Shown piece by piece: positions 37,573 through 41,465 of a stretch of 41,465 nt of DNA. This DNA comes from a virus (taxonomy: Duplodnaviria > Heunggongvirae > Uroviricota > Caudoviricetes): IMG/VR virus record IMGVR_UViG_2917881069_000006, one strand, 5' to 3'. Under the pieces are notes generated by a model. It was not told the origin of the DNA. It made no database searches and saw only the letters and a program-made list of their open reading frames with translations. How positions within the stretch are numbered: position 1 is the first letter of the stretch; each line of letters starts with the position of its first letter. The translations under genes were made by a program, and so were the position numbers.

Positions 37573-38358
37573 ATGAGTACTGCACTCGCAACGCTGGCAG
37601 GGAAGCTGGCTGAACGTGTTGGCATGGATTCTGTCGACCCACAGGAGCTGATCACCACTCTTCGCCAGACGGCATTTAAAGGTGATGCCAGCGATGCGCA
37701 GTTCATCGCATTGCTGATCGTCGCCAACCAATACGGCCTTAATCCGTGGACGAAAGAAATTTACGCCTTCCCTGATAAGCAGAACGGCATCGTTCCGGTG
37801 GTGGGCGTTGATGGCTGGTCCCGCATCATCAACGAAAACCAGCAGTTTGACGGCATGGACTTTGAACAGGACAACGAATCCTGCACATGCCGGATTTACC
37901 GCAAAGACCGCAATCATCCGATCTGCGTTACCGAGTGGATGGATGAATGCCGCCGCGAACCATTCAAAACCCGCGAAGGCAGAGAAATCACGGGGCCGTG
38001 GCAGTCGCATCCCAAACGGATGTTACGGCATAAAGCCATGATTCAGTGTGCCCGTCTCGCCTTCGGATTTGCTGGTATCTATGACAAGGATGAAGCCGAG
38101 CGCATTGTCGAAAATACCGCATACACTGCAGAACGTCAGCCGGAACGCGACATCACTCCGGTTAACGATGAAACCATGCAGGAGATTAACACTCTGCTGA
38201 TCGCCCTGGATAAAACATGGGATGACGACTTATTGCCGCTCTGTTCCCAGATATTTCGCCGCGACATTCGCGCATCGTCAGAACTGACACAGGCCGAAGC
38301 AGTGAAAGCTCTTGGATTCCTGAAACAGAAAGCCACTGAGCAGAAGGTGGCAGCATGA
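37573..38358 (+). CDS. bet: Bet (Red-beta single-strand annealing protein)
   Basis: 261 aa, [59 protein letters not shown]..., lambda Bet-like. Confidence 0.95.
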
Positions 38359-39035
38359 CACCGGACATTATCCTGCAGCGTACCGGGATCGACGTGAGAG
38401 CTGTCGAACAGGGGGATGATGCATGGCACAAATTACGGCTCGGCGTCATCACCGCTTCAGAAGTTCACAACGTGATAGCAAAGCCCCGCACAGGAAAGAA
38501 GTGGCCTGACATGAAAATGTCCTACTTCCACACCCTGCTGGCTGAGGTTTGCACCGGTGTGGCTCCGGAAGTTAATGCTAAGGCGCTGGCATGGGGAAAA
38601 CAGTACGAGAACGACGCCAGAACTCTGTTTGAATTCACTTCCGGCGTGAATGTTACTGAATCCCCGATCATCTATCGCGACGAAAGTATGCGCACCGCCT
38701 GCTCTCCCGATGGTTTATGCAGTGACGGCAATGGCCTTGAGCTGAAATGCCCGTTTACCTCCCGGGATTTCATGAAGTTCCGGCTCGGTGGTTTCGAGGC
38801 CATAAAGTCGGCTTACATGGCCCAGGTGCAGTACAGCATGTGGGTGACACGAAAAGATGCCTGGTACTTTGCCAACTATGACCCGCGTATGAAGCGTGAA
38901 GGACTGCATTATGTCGTGGTTGAGCGGGATGAAAAGTACATGGCGAGTTTTGACGAGATGGTGCCGGAGTTCATCGAAAAAATGGACGAGGCACTGGCTG
39001 AAATTGGTTTTGTATTTGGGGAGCAATGGCGATGA
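38355..39035 (+). CDS. exo: Exo (lambda exonuclease, 5'-3' dsDNA exonuclease)
   Basis: 226 aa, [40 protein letters not shown]..., lambda Exo-like. Confidence 0.95.
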
Positions 39036-39190
39036 CGCATCCTCACGATAATATCCGGGTAGGCGCGATCACTTTCGTCTACTCCGTTACAAAGCGAGGC
39101 TGGGTATTTCCCGGCCTTTCTGTTATCAGAAATCCACTGAAAGCACAGCGGCTGGCTGAGGAGATAAATAATAAACGGGGGGCTGTATGA
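39032..39190 (+). CDS. small ORF downstream of exo (lambda orf60a-like)
   Basis: 52 aa, [56 protein letters not shown] junction with exo stop and with the methylase start. Confidence 0.5.
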
Positions 39191-39744
39191 CTGATTTCAC
39201 CGGAAGCAATACTCCTGCCGAACATCGCGACAGCTGGCGCACACCACCAGAGATTTTTGCTGCGCTTAATGCAGAGTTCGTTTTTCAACTTGATGCTGCA
39301 GCCAGCGAAAAAAACCGACTATGTCGGCTTTTTATCTCACAGGAGCAGAACACATTAACCACTTCATGGCCTGAAGCAATGGGATATGCCTCTGGTTATG
39401 TCTGGTTGAATCCACCATACAGCAATATTTCCCCTTTTGTGAAAAAGGCAGCCACTGAAAACAAATTCAGTAGTGTGGGATGTGTAATGTTATTGCCTGC
39501 TGACACATCTGTCGGATGGTTTCATGAAGCGATACAAACCGCCAGTGAGGTCAGATTCATCACGGCAGGACGACTGGCATTTATTAACCCACTCACCGGG
39601 AAACCCGTCAGTGGAAATAATAAAGGCTCGATGCTCATTATCTGGCACCCATACCCCCGTACACACTGCCACTTTACGACCGTTGATCGTGGAGAGTTGA
39701 TGGCGTTCGGCTCAAGGATTCTTGCCCGTCGGGAGGCTGCATGA
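39187..39744 (+). CDS. phage DNA N6-adenine methyltransferase (Dam-like)
   Basis: 185 aa with NPPY catalytic motif (VWLNPPYSN) and upstream SAM-binding-like region. Confidence 0.8.
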   Translation: MTDFTGSNTPAEHRDSWRTPPEIFAALNAEFVFQLDAAASEKNRLCRLFISQEQNTLTTSWPEAMGYASGYVWLNPPYSNISPFVKKAATENKFSSVGCVMLLPADTSVGWFHEAIQTASEVRFITAGRLAFINPLTGKPVSGNNKGSMLIIWHPYPRTHCHFTTVDRGELMAFGSRILARREAA

Positions 39745-39824
39745 CAACCACGGAATACATTTTTCTGGCAGCGGGCTTCATATTCTGTGTGCTTATGCTT
39801 GCCGACATGGGACTTGTTCAATGA
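39741..39824 (+). CDS. 27-aa hydrophobic micro-ORF, translationally coupled
   Basis: MTTTEYIFLAAGFIFCVLMLADMGLVQ; ATG overlaps the methylase stop (ATGA) and its stop overlaps the next ATG (ATGA). Confidence 0.3.
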   Translation: MTTTEYIFLAAGFIFCVLMLADMGLVQ

Positions 39825-40036
39825 CACCTCAGCAGGAAAACGCCCTTCGCAGCATTGCCCGTCAGGCTAATTCTGAAATCAAAAAAGCCAGACAGCAGTT
39901 TCCGGATAAAAACGTCGATGACATTTGCCGTAGCGTACTGAAGAAGCACCGCGAAACGGTAACGCTGATGGGATTCACACCGACTCATTTAAGCCTGGCG
40001 ATCGGCATGTTAAACGGCGTCTTTAAGGAGCGATGA
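39821..40036 (+). CDS. hypothetical protein
   Basis: 71 aa from MTPQQENALRSIARQANSEIKKARQQFPDKN...; followed by a terminator. Confidence 0.45.
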   Translation: MTPQQENALRSIARQANSEIKKARQQFPDKNVDDICRSVLKKHRETVTLMGFTPTHLSLAIGMLNGVFKER

Positions 40037-40058
40037 ACATGAAAAGCAAAATCATCAG

Positions 40059-40079
40059 GGAGCTACAGGCTCCTTTTTT
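40059..40079 (+). terminator. intrinsic terminator
   Basis: Stem GGAGC-tacag-GCTCC followed by TTTTTT. Confidence 0.7.
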
Positions 40080-40134
40080 ATTATTCGCATTCACCCTCAA
40101 GCGTATTAACCAACAATTCAGGGATTAATGAAAG

Positions 40135-40353
40135 ATGGCAGACATCATTGATTCAGCATCAGAAATTGAAGAATTACAGCGCAATACAGCAATAAAAATG
40201 CGTCGTCTGAACCACCAGGCTATATCTGCCACTCATTGTTGTGAGTGTGGCGATCCCATAGATGAACGAAGACGCCTGGCCGTTCAGGGTTGTCGGACTT
40301 GTGCAAGTTGCCAGGAGGAGATCGAACTTAAGAACAAACAATGGGGATTGTGA
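40135..40353 (+). CDS. TraR/DksA-family C4 zinc-finger protein
   Basis: 72 aa; CCECGDPIDERRR...CRTCASC four-Cys motif. Confidence 0.75.
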   Translation: MADIIDSASEIEELQRNTAIKMRRLNHQAISATHCCECGDPIDERRRLAVQGCRTCASCQEEIELKNKQWGL

Positions 40354-40679: not shown

Positions 40680-41022
40680 GGCCTGTCAGTTTCTCAAGAT
40701 ATCCAGACCTACCGCTACCAACTGGATACGAACAGGCCGCCTACAGGCAACACGCAAAGATCCCACTAAACCAAAATCTCCTTACCTCACAACACGGCAA
40801 GCCTGCATTGCGGCGCTTCAGTCTCCGCTGCATACTGTCCAGGTGAGCGCGGGTGATGGCATAACAGAGGAAAGAAAATGTCACTCTTCCGCAGAAATGA
40901 AATATGGTATGCCTCGTACTCGCTCCCGGGCGGGAAACGAATTAAGGAATCTCTTGGCACAAAGGACAAGCGGCAAGCTCAGGAGTTGCACGACAAGCGA
41001 AAAGCAGAACTCTGGCGAGTAG
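40651..41022 (+). CDS. xis: excisionase-like HTH protein (Xis/AlpA-like)
   Basis: From [36 protein letters not shown] (RBS GAGG); C-terminal extent uncertain, frame overlaps the int start by 145 nt. Confidence 0.6.
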
Positions 41023-41465
41023 AAAAGCTAGGGGATTTACCTGATGTCACTTTTGAAGAGGCCTGCCTAAGATGGCTTGAGGAAAAAGCTGATAAAAAAT
41101 CTCTCGATTCAGATAAAAGCCGGATTGAGTTCTGGCTTGAACATTTTGAGGGTATAAGGCTTAAAGATATCTCGGAGGCAAAGATTTACTCTGCTGTAAG
41201 CAGAATGCATAACAGAAAGACGAAAGAAATATGGAAACAGAAAGTTCAGGCCGCCATCAGGAAAGGTAAAGAACCGCCTGTTTATGAACCAAAGCCAGTA
41301 TCAACTCAGACAAAGGCAAAGCATCTTGCCATGATAAAGGCCATTCTCCGTGCTGCAGAACGCGACTGGAAGTGGCTGGAAAAAGCGCCTGTCATCAAGA
41401 TACCAGCGGTCAGAAACAAGCGAGTCAGATGGCTGGAAAAGGAGGAAGCAAAAACGCCTTATTGA
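40878..41465 (+). pseudogene. int: tyrosine integrase, N-terminal 195 codons only (reading frame ends in TGA at the window edge)
   Basis: [69 protein letters not shown]... is the N-terminal arm-binding/core-binding part of a lambdoid integrase (Rac IntR-like from memory); stop at 41463-41465; catalytic domain with R-K-H-R-H-Y residues not present. Confidence 0.7.

Follow-up and report, generated by a model that had tools for sequence, protein, structure and literature searches.

The window analysed here, a 41,465-nucleotide stretch of viral DNA (Caudoviricetes; IMG/VR record IMGVR_UViG_2917881069_000006), carries on its plus strand a chain of closely packed small open reading frames (ORFs) that begins within the recombination genes bet (RecT-like annealase; 37573–38358) and exo (lambda exonuclease, 226 amino acids; 38355–39035), both assigned from the ORF list and from the annotation of a 99.5%-identical locus (L001) by the NCBI Prokaryotic Genome Annotation Pipeline (PGAP). 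exo is followed by a 52-amino-acid homologue of orf60a (DUF1317; 39032–39190; Pfam PF07026, E = 6e-35, profile positions 1–52 of 60); a 185-amino-acid Dam-family orphan phage DNA N6-adenine methyltransferase (39187–39744; PF05869/TIGR01712, with an NPPY motif); a 27-codon micro-ORF from the ORF list, MTTTEYIFLAAGFIFCVLMLADMGLVQ, with an ATGA overlap at either end (39741–39824); and a 71-amino-acid protein of the orf61 family (39821–40036; phrog_303, E = 5e-36). The micro-ORF, which is absent from published gene maps, is probably a real coding gene.

The chain region corresponds to the exo–xis region, in the distal part of the early-left (pL) operon of a lambda-like prophage. The block runs in the order exo, orf60a, the slot occupied elsewhere by orf63, orf61, a 29/31-amino-acid ORF and the TraR-like orf73; gam, bet and exo on one side and a helix-turn-helix (HTH)/xis-like gene and int on the other are all on the plus strand, placing the block between exo and xis/int and co-oriented with the pL operon, the same position that it holds in lambdoid phages. 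In the literature this block is orf60a–orf63–orf61–orf73–ea22, transcribed early from pL (PMC8614690, PMC4195576, PMC6213356), pro-lytic effects having been ascribed to orf60a, orf63 and orf61 and pro-lysogenic ones to orf73 and ea22 (PMC8614690, PMC6213356, PMC5575149, PMC4195576). The window shares orf60a, orf61 and orf73 with the lambdoid region at 95–99% nucleotide identity, and the 27- and 31-amino-acid ORFs and a predicted terminator are common to both. However, the window has no orf63 (DUF1382), which is replaced precisely by the Dam methyltransferase; its orf60a is eight residues shorter; ea22 is missing, with a DUF4222 gene and an HTH gene in that place; and the published maps omit the 27-amino-acid ORF and draw orf61 in a long form. 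The structural half of the window also resembles lambda-like siphoviruses, and positions 36.5–41.1 kb are ~96% identical to a prophage in E. coli AR_0061, annotated as Kil, Gam, Bet, exonuclease, DUF1317, phage N-6-adenine-methyltransferase, hypothetical (71 amino acids), TraR/DksA, DUF4222, HTH and integrase. An earlier interpretation made from the letters and ORFs alone (the sequence-only reading) had named exo, the Dam-like gene and the TraR-like gene, but had not recognised the exo–xis identity of the block (orf60a/orf63/orf61/orf73).

The same reading had described four ATGA stop/start overlaps, at 39032–39035 (exo/52-amino-acid ORF), 39187–39190 (52-amino-acid ORF/Dam), 39741–39744 (Dam/27-amino-acid ORF) and 39821–39824 (27-/71-amino-acid ORF), and all four coordinates are borne out by the sequence and the ORF list. 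The ends that it gave to the chain were too narrow, however, as two further ATGA overlaps, bet/exo at 38355–38358 and the 71-/31-amino-acid ORFs at 40033–40036, continue it in both directions, so that stop and start bases are shared at six successive junctions (38355, 39032, 39187, 39741, 39821 and 40033). Its claim of translational coupling holds for the physical arrangement, the stop/start overlaps being suited to coupling. Termination–reinitiation at overlapping stop and start codons is known from the trp operon and many phage operons, and the window resembles such systems (ATGA/TGATG type) in its six overlaps and in the weak Shine–Dalgarno (SD) site of orf61, whose predicted energy of -3.9 kcal/mol gives indirect support to the idea that these pairs may be translationally coupled genes. 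The ATGA tetramer is not enriched in the window (152 on the plus strand against 139 expected), and four-base overlaps are common in such phages: of the 55 same-strand junctions that PGAP annotated in a related prophage, 15 are of this kind. The chain therefore reflects the dense gene packing usual in phages and is no anomaly; taken by itself it is known biology.

In the phage collection, a translated search found the micro-ORF at an identity of at least 80% in 175 records, including lambda (J02459 30928–31008, minus strand), 933W/Sakai-type Shiga toxin (Stx) phages and phage 21, and the 96-nucleotide stretch that contains it is present in 3144 of 5426 complete E. coli genomes (58%). In lambda it lies entirely within the annotated orf61, in a different frame, and some GenBank records label it a hypothetical protein. 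Among 189 related loci, representing 19 haplotypes, every copy has the ATG, no internal stop and the TGA in register, such that the junctions on either side are kept in 189 of 189; the orf61 start that follows is ATG in 186 loci and GTG in three. The haplotypes differ by 22 distinct substitutions in the micro-ORF, 12 of which are synonymous, at third codon positions, and 10 non-synonymous. In a permutation test that keeps the mutation spectrum, this synonymous bias gave P = 0.012 in the micro-ORF frame, by comparison with 0.88 and 0.83 in the other two frames. Its ratio of non-synonymous to synonymous polymorphism (pN/pS) was 0.23–0.24, against 0.25 for orf60a, 0.17 for orf61 and 0.24 for the TraR-like gene in the same loci. 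All substitutions found in more than eight loci are synonymous; the commonest replacements are T3A (eight loci), A10V (six) and F8L (four), and those in the hydrophobic core (F8L, A10V, A11V and V26I) are conservative, exchanging one hydrophobic residue for another. By 15-residue hydropathy the peptide ranks at the top of the 187 ATG-initiated ORFs of 20–40 amino acids in the window.

From these patterns, the peptide sequence appears to be under purifying selection, and the ORF is most likely translated, giving a single-helix hydrophobic peptide that is probably embedded in the membrane. The sequence-only reading had described a hydrophobic, single-helix ORF of 27 amino acids; the peptide is as it stated, and the ORF behaves as a real micro-protein gene in being conserved, intact and subject to a frame-specific bias. 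Among small hydrophobic proteins, KdpF, AcrZ and MgtS are partners of membrane proteins, and TisB, Ibs and Hok are type I toxins. The micro-ORF product resembles these in having 27 residues, one hydrophobic helix and no recognisable domain; it differs in having no sequence similarity to any of them and no basic flanks, and its gene, at which no antisense RNA signal was found, sits within a coupled operon and is not a free-standing unit.

No protein family in Pfam, PHROGs or NCBIfam was matched by the micro-ORF, and searches with peptide strings returned no match in the searchable literature. Conservation at the level of RNA was considered and rejected: no Rfam family was found at the micro-ORF (E up to 1), and its predicted fold is not unusual (z-score -0.9). 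Also rejected was the idea that the ORF is what remains of the C-terminal end of a methyltransferase once encoded upstream: the products of the upstream genes end in ...REAA and ...TEAA, which it does not resemble. The 90% cluster that contains the micro-peptide also holds 428-amino-acid members; these are unrelated proteins and a clustering artefact.

The window itself carries a private variant of the peptide. Positions 39756–39758 read TAC (Tyr6), where the other 188 loci have a cysteine codon (TGC; TGT in four), and the same change turns the upstream ATG of the 'long orf61' into ATA. The exact 27-residue sequence of the window was not found in a collection of 15 billion proteins.

SD energies along the chain were computed with the 3' end of the 16S RNA as probe. 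The site preceding the micro-ORF, GGGAGG at 39731–39736 within the 3' end of the Dam gene and 4 nucleotides before the ATG, was the strongest of the chain at -10.3 kcal/mol and ranked in the top 2.5% of ATGs in the window; orf60a is preceded by GGGGAG at 7 nucleotides (-7.7 kcal/mol), and the orf61 site is the weakest of the chain. These strengths would fit a relay that re-initiates on orf61. Ribosomes finishing one gene of the chain would restart on the next via the overlapping stop and start codons; the exchange of orf63 for the Dam cassette would have brought in a GGAGG...ATGAC junction whose strong ribosome-binding site now feeds the micro-ORF; and termination at the ATGA of the micro-ORF would hand ribosomes to orf61, giving a relay by termination–reinitiation from orf63 or Dam to the micro-ORF and on to orf61. 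The reading that we favour, and hold to be reasonably probable, joins these parts: an exo–xis chain with Dam in place of orf63, in which the micro-ORF is translated into a hydrophobic peptide and relays ribosomes to the 71-amino-acid Orf61.

The same relay could operate with a peptide that has no function of its own and is degraded, the micro-ORF being translated purely as a spacer that leads to orf61. The ATGA overlaps at both ends, kept in all loci, and the weak SD of orf61 are as this would predict, as are the lack of basic residues flanking the hydrophobic stretch and the direct coupling of orf61 homologues elsewhere to whichever gene lies upstream, which would make coupling the conserved feature. 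A pure spacer should, however, tolerate amino acid change, and the observed pN/pS of 0.24 is as low as that of the neighbouring genes; core replacements are conservative and the widespread variants all synonymous, and the extreme hydrophobicity would be left unexplained. We therefore regard a functionless relay as rather unlikely, and prefer a relay whose peptide is itself selected.

Whether the stretch is instead the 5' part of a longer Orf61 depends on the true form of that protein. An exhaustive profile-free search found orf61 homologues at 35–65% identity that are all 69–75 amino acids long and align Met1 to Met1 with the 71-amino-acid form; a profile search found 195 such proteins, in Enterobacter, Citrobacter, Cronobacter, Klebsiella, Leclercia, Dickeya and others. 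The N-terminal extension, as seen in 93-amino-acid records, in the phrog_303 profile with its 22 extra N-terminal positions and in the 61-amino-acid lambda ORF, is thus an annotation artefact. We conclude that the true Orf61 is a 71-amino-acid three-helix protein and not the N-terminally extended form of lambda (61 amino acids) or Phi24B (93 amino acids). The annotated lambda orf61 (J02459, L113, locus coordinates 885–1197) has its start within orf63, in a frame that shows no sign of coding, and carries a one-base frameshift, such that only 22 residues of its annotated product come from the real Orf61, the remainder of the real protein being open in another frame; this agrees with the published verdict of a "truncated, unstructured" protein (PMC8614690). 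The same one-nucleotide frameshift was seen in a genome contig scan, whose matches were mainly lambda spike-in contamination in unrelated genomes. Two apparently divergent orf61 homologues (P0119 and P0125, ~51% identity) were rejected as indel-ridden low-quality assemblies of the same sequence and left out of the selection tests.

An AlphaFold2 model of the 71-amino-acid Orf61, built on a 46-sequence alignment, predicts three helices (residues 3–26, 32–49 and 54–64) with high confidence (predicted local distance difference test score 92.7), and residues 1–23 of the 93-amino-acid form are reported to model inconsistently (PMC8614690). A Foldseek search of the PDB with the model returned nothing with an E-value below 1 and no ZapA. 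The name 'cell division protein ZapA', often given to the 71-amino-acid protein by NCBI/PGAP, was rejected, as the Pfam match (E = 0.014) scores 16.1 bits against a cut-off of 23.8 and there is no NCBIfam hit; the published suggestion of a homeodomain also found no support in the Foldseek search, the only comparison applied to it.

These data bear directly on the possibility that the micro-ORF is an untranslated chance ORF, in a stretch that belongs to the 5' end of a longer Orf61 or else serves as a spacer, untranslated or regulatory. A long orf61 is annotated in lambda, Phi24B and many GenBank records and is reflected in phrog_303; its upstream ATG is present in 188 of the 189 loci; a weak promoter has been predicted here by BPROM (PMC4195576); and, by a rough estimate, an in-register ORF would span a 76-nucleotide gap by chance about once per hundred gaps (~1% per gap). 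Against this, the frame of the extension does not look coding, 4 of its 22 changes being synonymous (P = 0.83), and in one common variant a stop falls just upstream of the 'long orf61' ATG, which reads ATA in the window and has elsewhere a poorly spaced SD of -1.7 to -3.8 kcal/mol. The distant homologues start at the downstream Met, PGAP picks the 71-amino-acid form, and neither an RNA family nor a stable fold was found. We consider a chance ORF improbable, and a translated micro-ORF ahead of a 71-amino-acid Orf61 the better account.

The sequence-only reading had proposed that such a peptide might be a host-killing or exclusion factor. In size and hydrophobicity it is comparable to small membrane toxins, Kil, Gam and similar genes are its neighbours in an early operon, and exo–xis genes reduce host survival after infection (PMC6213356, PMC5575149). 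A killing, type-I-toxin-like or superinfection-exclusion role nevertheless appears very unlikely to us: Pfam, PHROGs and NCBIfam gave no match to a toxin or defence family, PADLOC not being part of the search; the peptide has no basic residues; 58% of complete E. coli genomes harbour the ORF silently, and lambda work has mapped no phenotype of this sort to it. Rfam searches and a promoter scan for the hallmarks of a type I toxin found no cis-encoded antisense RNA or dedicated repression at the micro-ORF and no conserved antisense promoter; the lone promoter-like site nearby on the minus strand has its -10 element inside Dam-specific sequence. The proposal thus drew no backing from the protein families, the antisense strand or the composition of the peptide.

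The sequence-only reading had listed the Dam-like gene in the chain, overlooking that it is a precise cassette replacement. The slot after orf60a is filled by orf63 (DUF1382, 63 amino acids) in phage 21, 4A7 and lambda; in the window no DUF1382 was found there, and orf63 has been exchanged exactly, start codon through stop codon, for a predicted Dam methyltransferase (PF05869). Identity to phage 21 and lambda breaks at the shared ATG and returns exactly at the ATGA of the micro-ORF; the left edge reads GGGGCTGTATG followed by ACTGAT in the window and by CACAAA in phage 21. In orf63-type phages orf60a extends to 60 amino acids, overlapping orf63 by 28 nucleotides, whereas in the window the second codon of Dam begins with A, which creates an in-frame TGA and stops orf60a at 52 amino acids; the orf60a/Dam ATGA is therefore specific to the Dam variant. 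Of 3669 E. coli genomes with a match to the region, 244 (~7%) have this variant, and among isolated phages the same cassette was found in only one coliphage, PhiR30_1.

The 185-amino-acid product is a full-length match to the phage Dam family, above the cut-offs of both Pfam PF05869 (E = 1.8e-56, 190.9 bits against 28.1) and the NCBIfam equivalog TIGR01712 (168.2 bits against 97.05), and its translation carries the (D/N)PPY catalytic motif as WLNPPYS. It is like other members in its size of ~185 amino acids, in the NPPY motif and in having no restriction partner nearby. Characterised members of the family, from phages T1, HP1 and VT2, reportedly methylate GATC. The window enzyme, predicted from sequence, differs in that its phage relatives at the DNA level are only ~70% identical: those nearest to the cassette (39191–39740) are the Enterobacter phages ENT1, BHUENT3/6 and CobraSix. 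This relationship suggests that the cassette was imported from another enterobacterial phage lineage.

A possible lead on Orf61 came from the genomic contexts of orf61 homologues outside E. coli lambdoid phages. A DNA methyltransferase lies directly upstream of the homologue in 10 of 12 non-E. coli-type contexts, with four architectures: a stand-alone PF05869 Dam in Enterobacter phage ENT1 (locus L120) and in L202; Dam fusions in Enterobacter phage CobraSix (L119), L208 (PAPS-reductase-like plus Dam) and L209 (C5 methylase plus Dam); a fusion of C5 and D12-class methylases in L203; and an MT-A70 enzyme in L201, L204/205, L206 and L210/211. The upstream gene in the remaining two, L207 and L212, is a small ORF with no family assigned. 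The homologue starts lie at 1135, 1243, 901 and 1801 in L119, L120 and L201–L211. Stop and start overlap as ATGA in nine of the ten methyltransferase contexts, with a 2-nucleotide gap in L203, and a GGAGG precedes the ATG of the homologue by ~4–8 nucleotides, typically as ...CGGGAGGCCGC-ATGAC.... The end of the window Dam has the same junction (CGGGAGGCTGC-ATGAC; GGAGGCYGC-ATGAC type), joined to the start of the micro-ORF (ATGACAACC) and not to that of orf61 (ATGACACCT). The window cassette probably derives from a Dam–orf61 module. Judged by this synteny, Orf61 may act together with orphan methyltransferases or regulate them, and the coupling of methyltransferase and orf61 is modestly new.

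Several observations weigh against the reading in which the micro-ORF is translated and feeds orf61. All of these non-Escherichia orf61 modules lack it, so that orf61 expression does not in general require it. The SD that precedes it in orf63-type phages is a weak one of -3 to -5 kcal/mol, and ATGA coupling would have to serve it there. PGAP leaves a 76-nucleotide "intergenic" gap at this position in every locus inspected, and the two extra ORFs named in this region by ribosome profiling of lambda have 7 and 31 amino acids, not 27 (PMC8614690). The selection test had only 22 changes to draw on, with P of ~0.01, in a family of small divergence (at least 95% nucleotide identity in most genomes). 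The 27-residue product, finally, has no flanking basic residues, and its uninterrupted hydrophobic run is ~16 residues long, with Asp22 close to the end.

If the 27-codon ORF is real, a gene is missing from the maps of lambda and of hundreds of Stx phage records, orf61 has been annotated with the wrong start, and published orf61 deletion phenotypes are confounded. In Phi24B the 93-amino-acid orf61 starts at base 15 of the micro-ORF, and the annotated lambda orf61 contains the micro-ORF entirely; replacement of the long orf61 would thus also remove most of it. What is modestly new here is accordingly a conserved but unannotated micro-gene, present in lambda too, that confounds the annotation of orf61 and, by extension, probably its deletion phenotypes. 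That orf61 homologues are repeatedly found in tight coupling with DNA methyltransferases, of four kinds, provides the first testable functional lead for Orf61. We put forward only tentatively the wider proposal that lambda-like and Stx phages encode, between orf63 and orf61, a membrane micro-protein of 27 residues that has been overlooked and to which part of the orf61-deletion phenotypes (host survival, lysogenisation and Phi24B adsorption) belongs, and that the Orf61 family is a dedicated partner or regulator of methyltransferases.

Downstream of orf61, the chain continues into the 31-amino-acid ORF (40033–40128; ATGA overlap with the orf61 stop), which has an alternative ATG at 40039 with a strong AAGGAG SD 7 nucleotides upstream (29-amino-acid form). 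It is identical in lambda and is probably the 'orf2313, 31 aa' detected by ribosome profiling (PMC8614690). The ORF is kept in Enterobacter phage ENT1 (L120 1796–1888, ~70% identical), where it is also ATGA-coupled to the upstream gene and reads MKELITRSLSRPFLLLAFTFNRINRQFREH. Inside it lies a hairpin with a T-run (40057–40085, plus strand) that resembles an intrinsic terminator, identified by hairpin prediction; its stem differs from that of ENT1 on either arm with the pairing kept, and it corresponds to the t2 terminator predicted between orf61 and orf73 (PMC4195576). A second terminator-like element, on the plus strand within orf60a (39096–39127), consists of a GC-rich hairpin of 9 bp and, after it, a T-rich tail; it may be the 't1' of the literature.

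The block is followed by orf73 (40135–40353), which encodes a 72-amino-acid TraR/DksA-type C4 zinc-finger protein (Pfam PF01258, E = 1e-8; phrog_54); it also matches TIGR02419 with E = 1e-14, yet scores under the curated cut-off. At the far end of the window, the integrase ORF (40878–41465) encodes 195 amino acids, with its stop codon at the very edge of the sequence. Its counterpart in the related prophage has ~372 amino acids, and similarity of the window to that prophage ends at 41146; the window integrase may therefore be truncated, or the window end may represent a junction.

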